Origin: Candidatus Daviesbacteria bacterium
GTDB lineage: Bacteria > Patescibacteriota > Microgenomatia > Daviesbacterales > UBA10151
Assembly: GCA_028715175.1 (NCBI GenBank)
Contig: JAQUSJ010000001.1
Span: forward strand, 472,368-536,367
Direction of reading: 5' to 3'
DNA length: 64,000 nt
Part shown: piece after piece, positions 781 through 52,775 of the stretch
Layout of the letters: every line of letters starts with the position of its first letter
How positions within the stretch are numbered: the stretch's first letter is position 1
Notes under the pieces: generated by a model
What the model saw: the letters and a program-made list of their open reading frames with translations, nothing else
What the model was told of the DNA's origin: nothing
Databases searched by the model: none
Made by a program: the position numbers and the translations under genes

Positions 781-3700
781 ATGACAATCACAAAGACTAT
801 TATGCCTAAATTTGTTCACCTTCATGGCCACACCCAATATTCTCTTTTAGACGGACTGTCAAAAGTTCCGAAATTAATTAAGACTGTTAAAGATTTAGGT
901 ATGGAATCAATAGCCATTACGGATCATGGGGTAATGTATGGGGCAATCGAGTTCTACAAAGCTTGCCGGGAAGCCGGGGTAAAACCTATTGTCGGGGTAG
1001 AAATGTATGTTGCCAAAAGATCCCATAAAGACAAAGAAGGAAAACTTGACAGCGAACCGTTTCATTTAACAGTACTGGCTAAAAATTACCAGGGATATCT
1101 TAACTTGATGAAGCTGACAACTATTGCCCATTGTGACGGATACTACTACAGACCAAGGGTGGATAAAGCTTTATTGAAAGAGTTTCACGAAGGATTAATA
1201 GCTTTGTCAGGCTGTCCTGCAGGAGAATTTGTCAGGTCTTTAAATACGAGAGACCCCAAAAAGGCCGAGGAAGTAATCAAAAATTATTTAAGTATATTTG
1301 GCGAAGGTAACTTTTATCTGGAATTGCAAAGTCATCCATATCAGCAGTCTTTGGACGAAGCGGTGGACGATACAGTCAAAAAGGACTTGCAGGAGATACT
1401 GGATATACAAACCCAAACCTGGAGTACGGTAAAGCAGTTATCGAAAAAAATTGGCATACCAATAGTTGGAACCAACGATTACCACTATGTCGCAAAAGAA
1501 GATGCCCAGGCTCAAGATGCATTGCTTTGTGTCCAAACCGGAAAATTACTTAGCGATGTTGTAAGGCTTCGGATGATTGATACCCCGGATTATTTTGTGA
1601 AATCACCGGTTGAGATGGCGGAAAATTTTAAAGATATTCCGGAAGCTCTGGAAAATACTGTAAAAATTGCGAAACTGATTGATTTGGAAATTCCATTGGG
1701 GGTAGCCCGGTTTCCGGTATTTGAAACTCCAAACAAGGCTTCCTCAATGGAGTATTTGCGGGAGATAACATATCAAAAAGCAGCTGAAAAATTGGAATTG
1801 ACAAAAGAAATAAAAGAGCGTTTGGATTTTGAACTTAGCGTGATTGAGAAAAAGAAATATGCGGACTATTTTCTGGTAGTTGCGGATTTTATGGACTGGG
1901 CTCACCAGCGGGGGATTATTACCAACACCAGGGGTTCTGCGGCAGCTTCAATGGTTTTATATTGTTTAGGGGTAACTAACCTAAACCCTTTGGGTTATTT
2001 GCTGCCTTTTGAGCGTTTTTTAACAGTCTATCGGCCTTCTCTGCCGGATATTGATGTTGATATAGCTGATGACCGCCGTGATGAAGTGATAGATTATGTG
2101 ATGAAAAAATATGGTAAAGATCGGGTTGCTCACATTGTGACTTTTGGAACCATGATGGGCCGGGCTGCCATTAGGGATGTGGGCAGGGTTATGGGGATGT
2201 CTTACTCCGATGTAGACAGGATTGCCAAATTAGTTCCGCCCCCCCATCAGGGTTTTCACAAACCTTTAGGGTTGGCAGTTAAAGAAGTGCCGGATTTGCA
2301 GAATTTATATAGAAGCGATCCTCAAATTAAGAAACTTTTGGATTTGGCTGCCAGGATTGAAGGTACTGTGCGTCATGCTTCGGTGCATGCAGCGGGTATT
2401 GTTATTGCCCCGGATGAAATAACCAATTTTACCCCTTTGCAAAAAGAATCCAGCGGAGAAAGACTGGTATCCCAATATGACATGTTTGCGGTAGAAGATG
2501 CAGGTTTGGTGAAAATGGACCTTTTGGGTATCAGAAATTTATCAATTTTGGGTAAAGCCGTTGAATTTGTCAAAGAAAATAGAGGAATAAGCATTGACCT
2601 GGATAAAATCCCCCTGGATTACAAAAAGGCTTTTGAGCTTTTGGCCAAAGGCGAAACCATGGGAGTTTTTCAGCTGGAAGGTTCGGGTATGACCAGATAT
2701 GTAACAGAACTAAAACCAACCAGTATTACCGATATTCAGGCCATGGTGGCTTTATACCGCCCGGGGCCTTTGGGGGTAATCCCGGAATATATTGCCCGGA
2801 AGCATGACCCGAAAAAAGTGAAATTTTTTGACCCCCGGATGAAAGATTATACCGAAGCCTCCTTGGGTTTGCTGGTTTATCAGGACGATGTATTGCTTAC
2901 AGCTATTAACATTGCCGGTTATTCCTGGGAAGAGGCTGATAAGTTCAGGAAAGCCATGGGTAAAAAAATTCCCTCTGAAATGGCCAGGCAAAAAGACAAG
3001 TTTATTGAAGGGTGTATTAAAAACGGCATGAGAGCGGAAAAAGCGGAAGAGTTATTTGCCATGATTGCTCCCTTTGCAGCTTATGGATTTAATAAAGCTC
3101 ATGCGGCCAGTTATGCCATGATTGCTTATCAAACAGCTTACATGAAAGCAAGCTTCCCTGTTGAGTTTATGGCAGCGGTTATGACGGCCGAATCAGGAGA
3201 CAGCGATAAGATTGCTTCGGCGATTGAAGAATGTAAAAGACTTCAGATTGTAGTTTTGCCGCCTGATGTCAATAAATCGGGAATCGGTTTTTCTCTGGAG
3301 AAACTAAAAGAGCTTTCGCAGGCCGATCTGGAGCGAAGCTTGAGTGTTGGAGAAAGCGGTATAAAGCAGGGTATTAGGTTTGGCTTATCAGCTGTGAAAA
3401 ATGTCGGTATTTCTGCGATTGAATCAATCATTCTGGCAAGAGAAGATGGAGAGTTTGTGTCTTTGGCGGATCTTTGTTCACGGGTTGATACCCGTTTGGT
3501 GAATAGAAAAACCCTGGAAAGTTTAATTAAAGCAGGCGCCCTGGATCATTTGGGGAGCCGGGCCGGACAGCTTTTGGTTTTGGACTCTTGTTTGGAGCAG
3601 TCTCATAAGCAAAGTAGGGCAAGATTGTCGGGACAGGTGCTGCTGTTTGACAGCGAAGAGGATCAGGGAGTATTTGCTGTGAAACTGCCGGATGTTGCCG

Positions 3701-4344
3701 AGTTGCCTCTTGAACAATTGCTGGTTTTCGAAAAAGATCTTTTGGGTTTTTACCTGCATGAACCCCCTTTTCTTGCAGCACTTCAAAAATTAACCAGGTT
3801 TGTATCTATCAAACTTTCCGATTTGAGCGAGGAAAGTATCGGGAAAACTTTGAAACTGGGAGGAGTTATTGTTGCGGTTAAAAAAGTATTAACCAAAAAA
3901 GCAAGCAAGGAAATGGCATTTGTTAAAATTTCCGATGGGATTTTTAGTTTAGAAGTGGTAGTTTTTCCCAAAATATTTGAAACAAGCAAAGAATTTTTGG
4001 TTTCGGATCAGGTTGTTTTAATCTCCGGACGTGTTGAGAAAAGAGAAGAGGAGCTTTCTTTAATTGTTGAAAAAATTGCCCCGTTTGATCCGGAGAGCGC
4101 GGGTGATCTGCAGCAAAATAGCTTAATGGTTGAGATTTATATTCCGGCAGGGGCAGATATATCGGTATTACAAAATATAAACAGAACTCTGCGGGGATTT
4201 CCGGGAGGCACGCCGGTTGCGTTATTTTTAAATAGCGACAAGGGTGTAAGACGTATGGATTTGCCGTTTTCTGTTGATCCGCAACCTTTACTCGAGGAAA
4301 AAGTTAAAGAGATTCTAGGCAAAGAGGCTTTTAAAATAGTCTAG
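781..4344 (+). CDS. dnaE: DNA polymerase III alpha subunit
   Basis: 1187 aa; N-terminal PHP domain (FVHLHGHTQYSLLDG), polymerase core and C-terminal OB fold; typical DnaE length. Confidence 0.95.
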   Translation: MTITKTIMPKFVHLHGHTQYSLLDGLSKVPKLIKTVKDLGMESIAITDHGVMYGAIEFYKACREAGVKPIVGVEMYVAKRSHKDKEGKLDSEPFHLTVLAKNYQGYLNLMKLTTIAHCDGYYYRPRVDKALLKEFHEGLIALSGCPAGEFVRSLNTRDPKKAEEVIKNYLSIFGEGNFYLELQSHPYQQSLDEAVDDTVKKDLQEILDIQTQTWSTVKQLSKKIGIPIVGTNDYHYVAKEDAQAQDALLCVQTGKLLSDVVRLRMIDTPDYFVKSPVEMAENFKDIPEALENTVKIAKLIDLEIPLGVARFPVFETPNKASSMEYLREITYQKAAEKLELTKEIKERLDFELSVIEKKKYADYFLVVADFMDWAHQRGIITNTRGSAAASMVLYCLGVTNLNPLGYLLPFERFLTVYRPSLPDIDVDIADDRRDEVIDYVMKKYGKDRVAHIVTFGTMMGRAAIRDVGRVMGMSYSDVDRIAKLVPPPHQGFHKPLGLAVKEVPDLQNLYRSDPQIKKLLDLAARIEGTVRHASVHAAGIVIAPDEITNFTPLQKESSGERLVSQYDMFAVEDAGLVKMDLLGIRNLSILGKAVEFVKENRGISIDLDKIPLDYKKAFELLAKGETMGVFQLEGSGMTRYVTELKPTSITDIQAMVALYRPGPLGVIPEYIARKHDPKKVKFFDPRMKDYTEASLGLLVYQDDVLLTAINIAGYSWEEADKFRKAMGKKIPSEMARQKDKFIEGCIKNGMRAEKAEELFAMIAPFAAYGFNKAHAASYAMIAYQTAYMKASFPVEFMAAVMTAESGDSDKIASAIEECKRLQIVVLPPDVNKSGIGFSLEKLKELSQADLERSLSVGESGIKQGIRFGLSAVKNVGISAIESIILAREDGEFVSLADLCSRVDTRLVNRKTLESLIKAGALDHLGSRAGQLLVLDSCLEQSHKQSRARLSGQVLLFDSEEDQGVFAVKLPDVAELPLEQLLVFEKDLLGFYLHEPPFLAALQKLTRFVSIKLSDLSEESIGKTLKLGGVIVAVKKVLTKKASKEMAFVKISDGIFSLEVVVFPKIFETSKEFLVSDQVVLISGRVEKREEELSLIVEKIAPFDPESAGDLQQNSLMVEIYIPAGADISVLQNINRTLRGFPGGTPVALFLNSDKGVRRMDLPFSVDPQPLLEEKVKEILGKEAFKIV

Positions 4345-12767: not shown

Positions 12768-13303
12768 CAGAAGGCGAAATAAATCCAGAGGCGCCAGTAC
12801 ATGATTTAGCGCGCCGTAATGAGTGGTTAAGGAGAGAAGGACCCAACCATGGAATTGACCCTGAAAAATTTTTTCTGGGAGAGACGTTAGATACTGTTTT
12901 GGTTAGAATTTTAGATGATAGAAATTGCTTTTCTTGGCATAGACCACAGGATGATTTAGAAAACCCCGAGCGATTTCCAAGCGAGGCTCCTGGCGCGCGT
13001 ATGGACTACCTGGGACGTTTAGATGGAGAAATTGATACGTTAGATAGAGAGATTAATATTGTAGCGCCACTTTCAGAAATAAGTGCGGAGTTGAAAGGAA
13101 TAAGAGAGGATGTAAGATTAGCTGATTGGACAGTCAGAGACCAATTCTCCAGTGCTTATGGAAGATGGCAAAAATTAAGTGATCGGGTGGGAGAAATAAT
13201 TAAAGAAAATCCCGAACTTCAGGAAGCATCCGAATACTATATCAACAATATGGATAAGATTGCCAAATTATATTCAGCTTCATCCGGGCAAACGGAAGAT
13301 TAA
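12764..13303 (+). CDS. hypothetical acidic protein
   Basis: 179 aa; start overlaps the upstream stop (ATGA); 3' end overlaps convergent rsmI by 24 nt; K-poor and R/E-rich, unlike neighbours. Confidence 0.4.
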   Translation: MTEGEINPEAPVHDLARRNEWLRREGPNHGIDPEKFFLGETLDTVLVRILDDRNCFSWHRPQDDLENPERFPSEAPGARMDYLGRLDGEIDTLDREINIVAPLSEISAELKGIREDVRLADWTVRDQFSSAYGRWQKLSDRVGEIIKENPELQEASEYYINNMDKIAKLYSASSGQTED

Positions 13304-13972
13304 AACATATTCTCCCTTGGGTCCGCCAGCTGCCGGATTTTTTAGTTCTTCCAGCCATTCGCTAATTTTTTGCCCTTTCACGCTTTGGTGGATTTTGGTT
13401 AGTTCTTTTGCTAAAATTATTTCCATGTCCCCAAAAACTTCCTGCATATCCTGTAAAATTTTAACCAGCTTATGAGGTGAAACAAACAAAATATAGGTCA
13501 CTTTCATATAATCATTTTGTTCACGGTCGTGAACATTTTGAAATAATTTTAATCTGTGGCTTTCTTTTTCTGGAGGATATCCTAAGAACATAAATTTATC
13601 AGGCGGTAAACCGGAAAGGGTCAGTGCAGGCAGGATGGAAGATGGGCCGGGCAGAGAATCAACCGCAATTCCTTGCTGTAAGCATTCCCGGATCAGTTTA
13701 TACCCGGGGTCAGAAACGAGCGGTGTGCCGGCATCAGAAACTAAGGCCAGATTTTCTCCGGATTTTAACCTGTCAACAATCTCCAGGAAAATCCTTCCCT
13801 CATTATAGTCATTTAAAACAATCAGAGGTTTTTTAATTTGGTAATGGGAAAGCAGCAAACCAGTTCTTCTGGTATCTTCACAAATAATCGTATCCACAAA
13901 GCGGAGGACCTCTAGAGCCCTTAAAGTGATATCCTTTAAATTGCCGATTGGCGTTGGAATGATGTAAAGCAC
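13280..13972 (-). CDS. rsmI: 16S rRNA (cytidine1402-2'-O)-methyltransferase
   Basis: 230 aa; tetrapyrrole-methylase fold; N-terminal LYIIPTPIGNL..ITLRA...L and LVSDAGTP motifs typical of RsmI. Confidence 0.85.
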   Translation of the reverse strand: MLYIIPTPIGNLKDITLRALEVLRFVDTIICEDTRRTGLLLSHYQIKKPLIVLNDYNEGRIFLEIVDRLKSGENLALVSDAGTPLVSDPGYKLIRECLQQGIAVDSLPGPSSILPALTLSGLPPDKFMFLGYPPEKESHRLKLFQNVHDREQNDYMKVTYILFVSPHKLVKILQDMQEVFGDMEIILAKELTKIHQSVKGQKISEWLEELKNPAAGGPKGEYVLIFRLPG

Positions 13973-49330: not shown

Positions 49331-49717
49331 TTATCGTCTCTCAGGACACGCAGCTCTATTATATGCAGCTAATTCTGCCTTACCATGATCCCAAGGACCA
49401 TTATATCTTGCCCGCCTTAATTGGCTTTCCAGTTCATCAAGGGACATTTCTCCGTTGCAGGTTTTAACTTTTGTTCCACAAGCTGCATTATTGTAGGCTC
49501 TGAGTTCTTCACCAAGATTTTCTCGGCCCAGAGGACCATTATACCTTGCCAGATTTAATTCTTTTTCCATCTGACCAACAGTAATCTCTTCTCCTTTACA
49601 GGTTTCAATCATATTCTTTCTGTAAGCCCCACTATCTGCACAAGCTGAAAGCAGAGACGCAGCAAGAGCAATTCCAACTCCTCTTAATAATCCTCTTCGA
49701 AGATCAACATAACGCAT
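49331..49717 (-). CDS. lipoprotein with two ~40-aa tandem repeats (TC.GE...ARYNGP....AAC)
   Basis: Signal peptide with lipobox LLSAC; internal repeat visible by eye. Confidence 0.45.
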   Translation of the reverse strand: MRYVDLRRGLLRGVGIALAASLLSACADSGAYRKNMIETCKGEEITVGQMEKELNLARYNGPLGRENLGEELRAYNNAACGTKVKTCNGEMSLDELESQLRRARYNGPWDHGKAELAAYNRAACPERR

Positions 49718-49771
49718 AATTTTGGAATAGTAGCATTGTTCTTACCATAAATCAACTCTTCTAGCGCTTTG

Positions 49772-49844
49772 CGCCCCTGGAAGGAATTGCACCCTCGACC
49801 CTTTCGTCCGAAGCGAAATGCTCTATCTGCTGAGCTACAGGGGC
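49772..49844 (-). tRNA. tRNA-Arg (anticodon TCG) with an unusual T loop (TGCAATT)
   Basis: GCCCCTGTAGCTCAGCAGATAGAGCATTTCGCTTCGGACGAAAGGGTCGAGGGTGCAATTCCTTCCAGGGGCG; acceptor GCCCCTG/CAGGGGC. Confidence 0.7.
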
Positions 49845-49893
49845 ATATATTCACTAATATTAACAAATTATATACTCAATGTATAATTCTCAT

Positions 49894-49931
49894 TTGACAA
49901 ATATCTAACGATCGTCAATAATTTGTCAACA
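49894..49931. promoter_or_regulatory. 38-bp nested palindrome R1 (TTGACAAA-TATCTA-ACGATCGT-CAATAA-TTTGTCAA) overlapping the -35/-10 of the PaaX-like gene
   Basis: Outer IR ttgacaaa/tttgtcaa, inner acgatcgt; contains a TTGACA -35 box. Confidence 0.55.
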
Positions 49932-49937
49932 TACATT

Positions 49938-50465
49938 ATGGTTAGAAAAAGATCAAAATTAGTTAATGCTGCACTTTTTGCTTTGGAGAAATCTGTTTGG
50001 GTTGGAGCGACGATTTACGATTTTGCAACTTACATGCACCAATATTCTCATGGAAACCCGCAAGGAGCTGACCGTTATGAATTCTACCAACTTATATGGA
50101 GGTTAAGAAAAGAAGGTTTTATCGAAAGAACAAAGGATTTAAATGATGATAAAATAATTCTCAAATTAACGGCAAAAGGGGAAAATTACTTAAAGATAGA
50201 GAATGCTTTAAGGGATGAGAAATGGGATGGTAAATGGAGACTGGTTGTGTTCGACATTCCGGAAAGCAAAAGAAGATTGCGAAATACCCTAAGACAAAAG
50301 CTGAAAGAATGGGGGTTTAAATACTGGCAAAAAAGTTTGTGGGCCAGCAAAAAAGACGTTGCAGAACCCTTAAGGGAATTTATACAAGAATTGAGTCTTT
50401 CAGATTTTGTGCTCGTAGTAGTATCAAATGATCTCGGTACTTTCAGCAAGTTGACAAAAATCTAA
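49938..50465 (+). CDS. PaaX-family-like transcriptional regulator (wHTH + PaaX_C-like domain)
   Basis: Start moved to ATG 49938 (ORF track uses TTG 49923); C-terminal W.GKWRLVVFDIPE..R..R..LR..L...GF...Q.S.W motif. Confidence 0.5.
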   Translation: MVRKRSKLVNAALFALEKSVWVGATIYDFATYMHQYSHGNPQGADRYEFYQLIWRLRKEGFIERTKDLNDDKIILKLTAKGENYLKIENALRDEKWDGKWRLVVFDIPESKRRLRNTLRQKLKEWGFKYWQKSLWASKKDVAEPLREFIQELSLSDFVLVVVSNDLGTFSKLTKI

Positions 50466-50488
50466 CGATCGTCAATTGTTTGTCAACA
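50451..50488. promoter_or_regulatory. 38-bp nested palindrome R2 (35/38 identical to R1), overlapping the stop codons of the convergent PaaX-like and glucokinase genes
   Basis: ttgacaaaaatctaacgatcgtcaattgtttgtcaaca. Confidence 0.55.
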
Positions 50489-51296
50489 AATAGAGTGCTC
50501 CGTATAAGCCTGCGTCATGACCTAATGTAGCTTTAACTACTTCCGGAGCTTGGGGGAAAATTGTCAGAAACTCACTAAGATAGGTTTTGACTTTTTCCAA
50601 AGGAATACTTTTGGAAACGCCGCCTCCTAGGATAATAATATCCGGAGTCCAATGAACAGTTGTATTGACCAAACTGATTGCCAGATATCTTGATATTTCA
50701 TCCCAGATTTTTGGATCAGTAATATCTTCCCCTTTTTGTCCGTACATTTTTTCAAAATATGATCCGGAAACATACGCTTCCATATGGCCTTTGCCTCCGC
50801 AATTACAAAGATTTCCATCAGGTACGATAATTTGATGCCCGGGTTCAAAATTAAAACTGTCGTTGGAAATTTTTCCGTTAACAATCCTTTTTCCGCCTAC
50901 CCCTGTGCCAATAGCTATATATCCCACTATCTCCTTGCCTATTCCCGCTCCTTTTACAGCTTCACCTATGCCACCCGTGGCAGTATCATTTTCCAAAATT
51001 ACCTTGCAGTCAAAAACTGTTTCTAATTCGGTTTTTAAAGGTTTATTAATCCATCCAGGAATGTGAGGACTGGTAACCAGCATAGTTTTTTCCTTATCAA
51101 GAGGGCCGGCAACACCTCCGGCAATCCCAATAATTTTTTCGCCATGCGATAGCTCGTCTGCAGTTTGCTTTAAGGTTTTCATTCCTTCATTAAAATCTTT
51201 CGGAGTAGGAATAATTTTTGATCCGGCAAAAGTTTCACCGTCAGAAGAAGTGGCTAGACGCATATTTGTTCCGCCAATATCAAAACTTAAGTACAT
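50472..51296 (-). CDS. ROK family glucokinase
   Basis: 274 aa; N-terminal DIGGTNMR ATP motif; ROK Cys/His zinc motif (CNCGGKGHMEAY). Confidence 0.85.
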   Translation of the reverse strand: MYLSFDIGGTNMRLATSSDGETFAGSKIIPTPKDFNEGMKTLKQTADELSHGEKIIGIAGGVAGPLDKEKTMLVTSPHIPGWINKPLKTELETVFDCKVILENDTATGGIGEAVKGAGIGKEIVGYIAIGTGVGGKRIVNGKISNDSFNFEPGHQIIVPDGNLCNCGGKGHMEAYVSGSYFEKMYGQKGEDITDPKIWDEISRYLAISLVNTTVHWTPDIIILGGGVSKSIPLEKVKTYLSEFLTIFPQAPEVVKATLGHDAGLYGALYLLTNN

Positions 51297-51310
51297 GATA
51301 TAATTCTACC

Positions 51311-52273
51311 ATGAAAATTGGGTTTATTGGACTGGGCAGAATGGGCAAAAATATGGTTTTGCATCTTTTGGAAAAAGGGGTCGAGGTAGTAGCTTGGAAC
51401 AGGTCTCCTGAGCCTCGCGAAGAATTAAAAAAGGAAGCTAATACGCTTGCAAGGGGACGCCTTGCGAGGCTAACGGCTGCAGAAGACTTGGATGGGTTGA
51501 TTGGTAAACTTGATGCCCCTAGAATCATATGGTTAATGGTGACTGCTGGACCGGCAGTTGATGAACTTCTAGCCCAACTTGCCAATAAGTTAAATCCAGG
51601 GGATTTGGTAATTGATGGCGGTAATTCTTTCTACAAAGATACGATTAGAAGGGCAAATGAGTTAAAAAGCCATGGTATCCATTTTATGGATGCGGGTACC
51701 TCGGGCGGTATAGAAGGAGCAAGAAACGGTGCATGTATTATGGTGGGGGGTTCACAGGAGGATTTTAAGAGGGTTGAACCTGTTTTAAAGGTGGCTGCCG
51801 TCCCTGAAGGCTATGCTCATCTGGGTCCAGCGGGTAGCGGACACTTTGCCAAAACCGTTCATAATGGTATTGAATATGGCATGATGGAAGCAATTGGAGA
51901 AGGAGCAGCCATCCTGAAATATTCACCGTTTAACTATGACCTGCGGGAAGTATTTAGAATTTATAATAACGGATCAATCATTGAATCACGTCTGGTAGGC
52001 TGGTCTTTGGCAGAATTTAGGAGTGATCCTGATTTATCCAATATATCCTCTGTAATTGGATCAGGTGGAGGTGCTGGAAAAATCAAGGGGGAAGCACACT
52101 GGACACTAAAGTTGGCACAAAAGCTGGGGATAGATACACCGGTAATTGAGGCTTCAGTCAAAGTCAGAGATAACTCAGACAAAGATAAAGAAAATTCTCC
52201 AAACAGTTTCCGTAACAAAGTAGTTGCTGCCATGCGTTGGCAATTCGGCCGCCATCCTGTTAAAAAATCTTAA
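51311..52273 (+). CDS. gnd: 6-phosphogluconate dehydrogenase (decarboxylating), short-form Gnd
   Basis: 320 aa; Rossmann IGFIGLGRMGKNM; 6PGDH catalytic region; contains an in-frame family A element. Confidence 0.8.
   Translation: MKIGFIGLGRMGKNMVLHLLEKGVEVVAWNRSPEPREELKKEANTLARGRLARLTAAEDLDGLIGKLDAPRIIWLMVTAGPAVDELLAQLANKLNPGDLVIDGGNSFYKDTIRRANELKSHGIHFMDAGTSGGIEGARNGACIMVGGSQEDFKRVEPVLKVAAVPEGYAHLGPAGSGHFAKTVHNGIEYGMMEAIGEGAAILKYSPFNYDLREVFRIYNNGSIIESRLVGWSLAEFRSDPDLSNISSVIGSGGGAGKIKGEAHWTLKLAQKLGIDTPVIEASVKVRDNSDKDKENSPNSFRNKVVAAMRWQFGRHPVKKS
51445..51471. repeat. family A hairpin element copy 6, in-frame inside gnd (encodes LARGRLARL)
   Basis: gcttgcaaggggacgccttgcgaggct. Confidence 0.7.
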
Positions 52274-52775
52274 AAGGGAATTCTCCTACAATTTGCCAAT
52301 CGTCCACCTCTCCACCTTTGATCAGGGTAACTTTATTTACTTCCCATTGAGCTGATTGATCTCTGCCGATTTCTTTTATAATCTTCTCTTTGAGTTCAAC
52401 TGGAAAAGTTCCGTATAAGAGGCTCAAATGTGCCATATATTGTGGAATATTAGTCATATTAAAAATTTGTTTAGCCCTGTCATGCAGAGCTTGTAGTTCT
52501 TCGGTGATTTTAGCTTTGACGAAAAGTGTCCTGAAGAAAAAATCCTCATAATAAATTTGTCCAAGTTCCAAAGTGAATGACTTTTGACCTTTTACTAATT
52601 CTTTAGTTTTCTCAATACATTCTTCTTCCGTCTGCAAAAATTCACCCAATAAGGTAACATGGGGGCGAAATACTGGAGCATAGTACTGCTTGGACAGCCT
52701 TTGTATTAAATTGTTAAATTTCTCAAAAGCCTCGCCTGTCGGTACTAACCAGAGTGTGTAACCTTTTAATTTCAT
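52260..52775 (-). CDS. 2H phosphoesterase superfamily protein (LigT/2'-5' RNA ligase-like)
   Basis: Two H-x-T/S-x motifs (PHVTLLG, AHLSLLYG). Confidence 0.65.
   Translation of the reverse strand: MKLKGYTLWLVPTGEAFEKFNNLIQRLSKQYYAPVFRPHVTLLGEFLQTEEECIEKTKELVKGQKSFTLELGQIYYEDFFFRTLFVKAKITEELQALHDRAKQIFNMTNIPQYMAHLSLLYGTFPVELKEKIIKEIGRDQSAQWEVNKVTLIKGGEVDDWQIVGEFPFKIF

Follow-up and report, generated by a model that had tools for sequence, protein, structure and literature searches.

The window analyzed here, a 64,000-nt stretch of a Candidatus Daviesbacteria bacterium genome (contig JAQUSJ010000001.1, positions 472,368 to 536,367), contains a gene for a small PaaX-like protein that is bracketed by two 38-bp palindromes (i.e., R1 upstream and R2 downstream; Table 1). 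On the basis of sequence comparisons, R1 and R2 are probably two cognate operators of the gene that they enclose, with R1 used for autorepression and R2 serving as an auxiliary operator via looping and/or a roadblock. The repeats, their conservation throughout the protein family, the covariation of the two copies within each locus, promoter features confined to the upstream copy, the fold and family of the protein, and a presence/absence polymorphism of the whole unit are observed here; that the encoded protein binds the sites, represses its own gene, and acts through looping or a roadblock is what we infer. Below, U and D denote the upstream and downstream palindrome copies of any locus (i.e., R1 and R2 in the window), related loci are numbered (Lnnn), and the window is called WIN where it is compared with them.

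R1 and R2 are identical at 35 of 38 positions, and both are nested palindromes with outer arms TTGACAAA/TTTGTCAA and an inner ACGATCGT, as an earlier note on this DNA had described. They were the sole matches in the window at up to 3 mismatches (0 matches in 100 shuffles), and the looser pattern TTGACA-N(10-36)-TGTCAA likewise matched the window at R1 and R2 only. The earlier note had named a generic repeat as one outcome that would speak against an operator pair; neither the window nor ~360 kb of related loci contained a third copy of the R1/R2 type, and a generic dispersed repeat is rejected, since only two copies occur in the window. The two copies start 557 bp apart. ATG 49938, the most plausible start codon of the regulator gene, lies 7 nt past the end of R1. 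At the other end, R2 covers the final five codons of the regulator gene and the final codons of a convergent ROK-family gene, and it spans both stop codons (TAA, 50463 to 50465; TGA on the minus strand, 50472 to 50474), in agreement with the earlier note.

The -35 and -10 hexamers that had been suspected within R1 are present (TTGACA and AATAAT, 17 nt apart; 11 of 12 positions matching). The -35 lies in the left arm and the -10 in the right arm of the palindrome, the spacer contains its center, and transcription is predicted to start 1 to 9 nt ahead of the ATG. A second candidate promoter lies just 5' of R1, and hexamers like it are also visible in L021 and L002; if it were used, R1 would occupy approximately +1 to +38 of the transcript. 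Whichever candidate promoter is used, a protein bound to R1 would block expression.

Palindromic bracketing is a feature of the protein family. The genome-derived set comprised 20 loci from species-representative genomes (33 to 99% protein identity) and 2 from Logan assemblies, and a metagenome scan yielded at least 592 relatives, with 80 loci kept (29 to 46% identity); at the metagenome loci, upstream and downstream sequences were compared without prior assumptions and with shuffled and gene-internal controls. U and D copies surround the homolog in 22 of 22 genome-derived relatives. Among the metagenome loci, 59 of 78 were flagged as bracketed (at least 54 of 73 after the removal of 5 contig-edge artifacts). 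Across the bracketed relatives (29 to 99% protein identity; the L001 protein is 99% identical to that of the window), the palindromes are ~30 to 47 bp long and the U-D distance is ~516 to 793 bp. A 250-aa relative with a weak PaaX_C match is bracketed as well, while no bracket was found around a 237-aa relative packed between overlapping genes.

When the sites were aligned by their centers, the unit shared by U and D extended from -12 to +16, with same-genome U-versus-D identities of 0.6 to 1.0 per position inside this range and background levels outside it. The center is CGATCG, CGGCCG, or CGACCG (i.e., CGRYCG) in nearly all of the 45 aligned sites (exceptions, D of L006 and L014), and the positions conserved in the family are C-11, A-10, A-9, A-8, the center, T+1, T+10, and G+11. 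In distant metagenome relatives the centers differ (GCGATCGC, GCTATAGC, GCCATGGC, CGTACGTACG, and others), and the palindromes reach 36 to 47 bp, some of them perfect. The sites have significant dyad symmetry at the 12 positions that flank the center to the left and to the right, with only ~60% of the positions pairing. Such partial symmetry is typical of a site for a symmetric protein (i.e., a dimer) and not of a stable hairpin, which suggests the former here.

The arms differ between genomes yet agree within one locus. The mean arm identity is 22.3 of 32 positions within genomes versus 13.6 of 32 (standard deviation, 3.6) between genomes. Two paralogs in one metagenome-assembled genome (MAG) (L011 and L015; assembly JAJYNW01) have different arms and a palindrome pair each; therefore, the determinant of specificity is encoded at the locus. 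Each locus has a single family gene, and no third copy of a site was found in ~422 kb (the window and 41 related loci, each searched with its own site) apart from local duplications. The exceptions to the two-copy rule are L057 and L092, with partial duplications, and L045, with a tandem site. In L092 (4584 to 4830), U and the first regulator codons are duplicated ~1.2 kb upstream, with two unrelated open reading frames (ORFs) between the copies. L057 has two extra copies of U and the regulator start (1385 to 1440 and 1590 to 1625), one of which precedes a methyltransferase-like gene.

Two further loci have unusual features. The D center of L014 (1165 to 1215) is split by a ~30-nt G+C-rich hairpin (CTCGCCTCGCTCCGCTCGTCGGAGCGGGT) in an otherwise A+T-rich genome. 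In L002 (2998 to 3506), a frameshift divides the regulator homolog between two overlapping frames (possibly a pseudogene or an artifact of assembly), with both palindromes retained.

The two copies differ in their promoter features. TTGACA at -15 to -10 is specific to U, the D copies having no consensus at -15 to -13 and no -35 in most loci. In U, a -10-like hexamer is located at approximately +3 to +9 and the A of the ATG at +16 from the center across relatives (center-to-ATG distance, 21 to 22 nt in 16 of 23 loci); because of this placement, transcription would begin at or just ahead of the start codon. The right arm of U deviates toward TATAAT or TAATAT in distant clades, while D stays symmetric. 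The number of palindromic positions (of 16) averages 12.1 for D versus 11.3 for U, with D exceeding U in 37 loci and U exceeding D in 21. The D center is located 1 to 40 nt past the stop codon regardless of the gene that follows. These patterns suggest that U is a promoter with an embedded putative operator and D a pure site.

The 175-aa product is a minimal PaaX, consisting of a winged helix and a Cas2-like domain close to Cas2. The Pfam model of the central Cas2-like domain of PaaX (PaaX_M; PF20803) matched residues 94 to 167 (81.9 bits; cut-off, 24; E value, 3.5e-23), and the chain stops just past this domain. Pfam matched neither the phenylacetyl-CoA effector domain PaaX_C (PF08223) nor PF07848 in the protein, and no recombinase or transposase domain was detected in it. 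Among the NCBIfam models, the PaaX equivalog TIGR02277 scored 31.6 bits, below its cut-off of 264.55, and the cas2 model TIGR01573 scored 26.1 bits, above its cut-off of 24.5 but over residues 100 to 136 only. A profile of 42 homologs had Escherichia coli PaaX (8a39) as its top match (winged helix, chain residues 57 to 171); further matches were the PadR, MarR, and AspA winged helices (N-terminal half) and Cas2 (residues 100 to 135). In the AlphaFold monomer model (predicted local distance difference test score, 76 overall, ~90 in the C-terminal domain, and 52 to 82 in the N-terminal domain), the N-terminal domain is arranged as helix-helix-helix-strand-strand. A Foldseek search with this model returned PaaX 8a39 as the best match, together with Rv0674, VapD, and many Cas2 chains (probabilities mostly 0.75 to 1.0). 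The winged helix and the closest match agree with the PaaX-like regulator of the earlier note, but the domain that it had proposed to check as PaaX_C or Cas2 is PaaX_M.

Residues W96-D97-G98-K99, R101, R115, Q131, and S133 are invariant in the family, and W100, F105, and D106-I107-P108-E109 are kept in at least 90% of its sequences. The Cas2/VapD-type motifs FDIPE and QKSxW are conserved in the family; E. coli PaaX reads LLLLSEGLDKS at the aligned position of FDIPE. The WDGKWRLVVFDIPE motif occupies residues 96 to 109 of 175 and is therefore central, not C-terminal as had been stated. Nor is the likeness to Cas2 superficial, as the earlier note had held, since the domain is the Cas2-like PaaX_M, the TIGR01573 cut-off was passed, and the fold matches Cas2 and VapD. 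Its statement that no CRISPR array or other cas gene is present holds for the 64-kb window, where neither a tandem array nor cas1 or any other cas gene was found; no known RNA family was found either. In a Mantel test, site distances correlated with protein distances for both the winged helix and the Cas2-like domain (r = 0.28 and 0.25), a result that does not discriminate between them. Misannotation as Cas2 is likely for this family; one distant relative was named "CRISPR-associated endonuclease Cas2" by the Joint Genome Institute (JGI).

Taken together, the locus-specific covariation, the dyad symmetry, the winged helix, and a site size comparable to that of the PaaX operator suggest that R1 and R2 are both bound by the encoded protein. 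A single dimer probably covers one palindrome (~30 to 38 bp), the Cas2-like domain being the dimerization domain in PaaX. Since the -35 and -10 lie in the arms of R1 and the start codon is at most 7 nt downstream, protein bound to R1 would occlude RNA polymerase, so that the gene, with its leaderless or near-leaderless mRNA, would be negatively autoregulated. R2, which starts inside the last regulator codons, is most likely a promoterless auxiliary operator; this is its simplest explanation because D is kept even where it is unable to serve as a promoter. It may cooperate with R1 through a loop of ~557 bp around the gene, which would raise the occupancy of R1, or, when bound, it may form a roadblock that shields the 3' end from read-through and from the transcript of the convergent ROK gene. 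On this reading, operator, gene, and operator form one self-contained unit that is inherited, gained, and lost as a block. An autoregulatory operator pair had been proposed in the earlier note, and the bracketing in more than 70 relatives, the covarying arms, and the promoter found in U alone uphold that part; the looping that it also entertained is still something that we infer.

Several observations do not fit this reading easily. Asymmetric positions common to U and D are mostly in direct orientation (46 loci versus 10 inverted; L068 is a clear inverted case), and the central bases change together in U and D when close relatives are compared, the asymmetric CGACCG, in the same orientation, being one of the states. 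In a clade with nearly identical arms (L008, L009, L011, L012, L027, and L033), the central bases are GC, AC, or AT but always the same in U and D; the loci with mismatched centers (L006, L016, L021, L032, L039, L092, and L098) resemble intermediates. Since a symmetric dimer does not require concerted asymmetric centers, one site may to some extent be copied from the other, or the two centers may have to be identical. The second promoter just upstream of R1 makes the transcription start uncertain. Additionally, the only detectable strong sites flank the regulator's own gene, so that the physiological output is not obvious, and the presence/absence pattern and the 98.4% module identity between WIN and L001 (see below) fit a mobile unit as well. 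The U-D spacing gave no signal of helical phasing (P > 0.18), which is neutral, since such a test is uninformative at ~550 bp.

Table 1. Coordinates and main characteristics of the palindromes, promoters, and genes discussed (positions within the window)
Feature	Position	Strand	Description
tRNA-Arg(tcg), divergent neighbor	49771-49844	-	5' end 49 bp from R1
Second candidate promoter just 5' of R1	49860-49887	+	TTAACA-16 nt-TATAAT; 11/12 match
R1 (U copy), palindromic putative operator	49894-49931	.	TTGACAAATATCTAACGATCGTCAATAATTTGTCAACA; dyad center CGATCG at 49909-49914
Promoter-like site within R1	49894-49922	+	-35 TTGACA at 49894-49899, 17-nt spacer, -10 AATAAT at 49917-49922; 11/12 match
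Minimal PaaX-like protein gene	49938-50465	+	175 aa; winged helix and Cas2-like central domain, no effector domain
R2 (D copy), palindromic putative operator	50451-50488	.	TTGACAAAAATCTAACGATCGTCAATTGTTTGTCAACA; center CGATCG at 50466-50471
ROK-family sugar kinase gene, convergent neighbor, outside the module	50472-51296	-	C terminus ..GALYLLTNN, last codons encoded by R2
Orphan palindrome, family frame CA-N9-CGRYCG-N9-TG	13513-13540	.	CATTTTGTTCACGGTCGTGAACATTTTG

The module (i.e., the gene with its two palindromes) is present or absent at otherwise syntenic positions. The related Daviesbacteria L106, L107, and L108 have the same ROK/6PGD/BipA synteny, with no module gene and no palindrome; their ROK stop codon is followed after 14 to 15 nt by tRNA-Arg(tcg). 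In L105 the module is present at this ROK/tRNA-Arg position. A second interval, between tRNA-Leu(caa) and an M1 peptidase gene, holds the module in L109 and is 92 bp long and free of palindromes in L110. Genomes with and without the module interleave in the matrix of ROK identities; therefore, the module was gained or lost at least twice. The gene-free loci are also palindrome-free; therefore, the palindromes are part of the gene module, which is acquired or lost as one piece. The ROK C terminus is ..GALELLK(W/S) in relatives L105 to L108; in the window, the spacer between R2 and the ROK gene has evidently been deleted, so that the ROK ORF now runs into the palindrome. No target-site duplication could be called at the insertion boundaries, where the spacers are too diverged.

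At the nucleotide level, WIN and L001 are 98.4% identical in the module but 84 to 92% identical in most of the neighboring ROK/6PGD region, which also contains patches of 98 to 100%. Homology begins 6 to 12 bp to the left of R1, with nothing related further left. Over 49888 to 52300, the comparison is a mosaic, with identities of 98 to 100% also at 51100 to 51350 and as low as 64% elsewhere in ROK/6PGD. The contigs of L001, L021, and L022 end within ~140 nt of the U copy.

The genes next to the module vary. The downstream neighbors across lineages encode a ROK kinase, GT2, a Mur ligase, DprA, an M1 peptidase, an amino acid kinase, and unknown proteins, and they are convergent in 4 lineages (the WIN clade, L004, L006, and L007) and codirectional in ~9. 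The coupling of regulator expression to a glucokinase/pentose-phosphate cluster, which the earlier note had considered, is not borne out, since relatives with the same cluster have no module and the module adjoins DprA, Mur ligase, M1 peptidase, or GT2 genes elsewhere. tRNA genes adjoin the module in six independent contexts (Arg-tcg, Leu-caa, Glu-ttc, and Trp divergent upstream; Arg-cct and Ser codirectional downstream), with the 5' side of the tRNA toward the palindrome in 6 of 6 (probability by chance, ~0.016 by our own arithmetic, assuming random orientation). The window tRNA-Arg, split from the ROK gene by the module, must use a promoter within the 49 bp to R1, in sequence that accompanies the module, and the regulator may influence its expression.

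One further site of the family type occurs in the window (Table 1). This orphan palindrome is located inside an rsmI-like coding sequence (13280 to 13972, minus strand). Its frame, CA-N9-CGRYCG-N9-TG, is expected 0.055 times per window, and it scored 34.2 bits with a position weight matrix derived from the D sites that the DprA-associated clade has in other genomes (highest score in 100 simulated windows, 16.5 bits). No second family gene or pseudogene remnant was found in the window, including the vicinity of this site, and rsmI was not found as a neighbor of the module elsewhere. The orphan probably serves as a target of a paralogous regulator whose gene lies beyond the window.

The same data can be read in other ways, and the closest competitors view the unit as a genetic element. 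The palindromes may be the ends of a small mobile or selfish cassette that moves between intergenic sites, often at the 5' sides of tRNA genes, with the protein recognizing and possibly cutting them. We regard this as unlikely, although clean presence/absence at two syntenic positions in genomes interleaved by ROK identity, the highly diverse downstream neighbors, and the six tRNA contexts with the 5' end toward the palindrome all speak in its favor. So do the high WIN-L001 module identity relative to the flanks, with homology beginning right beside R1, the direct orientation of the U/D asymmetry with centers changing in concert, the retention of the Cas2/VapD-type FDIPE and QKSxW, and the partial duplications of U and the gene 5' end in L057 and L092. 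However, no genome or locus carries multiple near-identical copies, each locus has one family gene, an alignment-based scan found no relative on viral contigs, and no recombinase or transposase domain was detected. U- and D-specific features are kept across species within clades, which implies long vertical inheritance, and synteny is stable within lineages. The mosaic flanks of WIN and L001, with their patches of 98 to 100% identity, could be explained by ordinary homologous recombination. The absence of palindromes from the four empty loci (L106, L107, L108, and L110) argues against a resident att-like integration site and against excision by recombination between U and D. An att/dif-like or integron-like cassette was considered separately and rejected, as empty loci keep no copy of the site and the module has no recombinase domain. 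In a related and likewise improbable reading, a Cas2-like dimer with a winged helix at each end would be a molecular ruler acting on its own terminal palindromes, i.e., an autonomous unit of the candidate phyla radiation (CPR) akin to the relationship between Cas2 and its repeats; gain and loss would then perhaps proceed by protein-mediated copying or insertion into promoter regions beside tRNA genes.

The palindromes could also work on the surroundings or at the level of nucleic acid structure. It is distinctly unlikely that R2 acts outward as an operator or promoter on neighboring genes (here, on an antisense or convergent transcript) and R1 on the divergent tRNA, the bracket being a by-product of a local regulon. 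In ~70% of lineages a codirectional downstream gene starts 40 to 120 nt past D, every tRNA neighbor has its promoter side toward the palindrome, extra U-like copies are located ahead of other genes in L057, and the orphan in the window shows that family sites occur away from a family gene. On the minus strand, promoter-like hexamers are found in R2 (TTGACA-16 nt-TAGATT) and in R1 (TTGACA-18 nt-GATATT). Against these points, D is kept in the four lineages with convergent neighbors, is mostly without a -35 and a "purer" palindrome, and adjoins genes with no common function; L002 and L022 do not share the minus-strand promoter of R2. We consider it very unlikely that the palindromes are nucleic acid hairpins, with R2 as a bidirectional terminator or 3'-end stabilizer and R1 as a terminator or insulator of the upstream unit. 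R2 does lie exactly where the stop codons of two convergent genes meet, distant relatives can have a perfect palindrome of 30 to 47 bp as D, and the minus-strand RNA of R2 folds with -12.9 kcal/mol (z = -2.5). Yet the folds in the window are weak (z = -1.4 to -2.5), with no T-run after them, and a terminator scan reported neither R1 nor R2. Moreover, only ~60% of the dyad positions pair and the inner 5 + 5 nt are unpaired, a role as terminator does not explain why the U and D of one locus match yet differ from those of other loci, and R1 would be untranscribed if the promoter inside it is used. The specific candidate of an intrinsic terminator (i.e., a G+C-rich stem followed by a T-run) was rejected at both R1 and R2, given the weak folds and the absence of a T-run.

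Several known systems resemble the proposed pair of operators in part. E. coli PaaX represses its own promoter, Px, by RNA polymerase occlusion, and its operator is the inverted repeat TGATTC-N27-GAATCA (PMC9493321). The window pattern TTGACA-N24-TGTCAA, which carries the -35 and -10, resembles this geometry. The window protein shares with PaaX (PDB 8a39; TIGR02277) a winged helix followed by a Cas2-like central domain with the WDGKW signature, but PaaX is longer (316 versus 175 aa) and the window protein is without PaaX_C. With a score far under the TIGR02277 cut-off, the window protein is no PaaX equivalog, although its proposed mode of action is that of PaaX at Px. It also keeps FDIPE and QKSxW, of which at least FDIPE is lost in PaaX, and no paa genes lie immediately beside the window module. 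Moreover, E. coli paaX has no such bracket; the gene overlaps paaY, and none of its upstream sequence is repeated on the downstream side.

An auxiliary operator a few hundred bp away, with looping that raises occupancy, is part of repression at lac (O1-O2), gal (OE-OI), and deo (O1-O2). R1 and R2 resemble these as two similar sites ~0.5 kb apart with one on the promoter; they differ in that the auxiliary site comes right after the regulator's own stop codon, the putative loop would enclose the regulator gene, and the arrangement is kept across a whole protein family whatever the neighbors. With Cas2 and VapD, the window protein has in common the ferredoxin-like fold, with an N-terminal beta-strand ending in a conserved Asp and then a Q.SVF-like strand. 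Unlike them, it is fused to a winged helix, with no cas genes or CRISPR array in the window and with two "repeats" 557 bp apart. RAYT transposase genes are bracketed by repetitive extragenic palindromic (REP) sequences that are thought to be recognized by the product and are dispersed in tens to hundreds of copies. The likeness of a single small gene bracketed by palindromes is superficial, as the window palindromes are limited to two flanking copies and the protein has no HUH/Tyr transposase domain. A REP/RAYT-type dispersed repeat was accordingly rejected (two copies in 64 kb and no third in ~422 kb apart from local duplications). The C proteins of restriction-modification systems are small and encoded by leaderless autoregulated genes with a compound palindromic C-box of ~35 bp in the promoter, and the window palindrome is likewise ~35 bp long and embedded in the promoter of a small, putatively autoregulated gene. 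However, C proteins have an Xre-type helix-turn-helix and no downstream copy of the site, whereas the window has a winged helix with a Cas2-like domain and no adjacent restriction-modification genes. We found no description of the bracket arrangement in the literature searched, subscription journals not being covered. An autoregulated repressor with an auxiliary operator is a known kind of system; new are the second site fixed at the regulator's own stop codon, the family-wide layout, and the gain or loss of the unit as a whole.

Almost no transcription factors of CPR/Patescibacteria are characterized, and operator predictions are now available for hundreds of family members (at least 592 metagenome relatives). 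The family is a possible natural library of potentially orthogonal repressor/operator pairs, as two paralogs with different palindromes in one MAG illustrate. A Cas2-type domain in an apparently sequence-specific DNA-binding protein that keeps the Cas2 motifs bears on the relationship between Cas2 and PaaX. It is also an annotation hazard, since the NCBIfam cas2 threshold is passed by a non-CRISPR protein. In the PaaX literature that was searched, nothing corresponds to the conserved second site straight after the stop codon. If this site mediates a loop around the gene of the repressor or delimits a mobile unit, the architecture would be a new regulatory or genetic one; if the ruler reading is true, the unit would be not an ordinary regulator but a free-living relative of the Cas2/repeat relationship, and a previously undescribed kind of autonomous unit.

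Two minor observations concern other sequences near these modules. In L057, a repeated element, CCCC(T/G)TCGCCCAAAT(T/C)CC(G/A)GCGGGGGA, occurs at 1282 to 1305, 1468 to 1495, 1670 to 1690, 3283 to 3312, and 4025 to 4055; it precedes several genes and may be a structured leader or a Shine-Dalgarno element. In the window, a 128-aa ORF (49331 to 49717, minus strand) has a lipoprotein-like N terminus (..LLSAC) and no NCBIfam match, and it contains an internal duplication (..ARYNGP..AAYN.AAC.., twice) that arises from a 58-nt direct repeat at 49394 and 49532.

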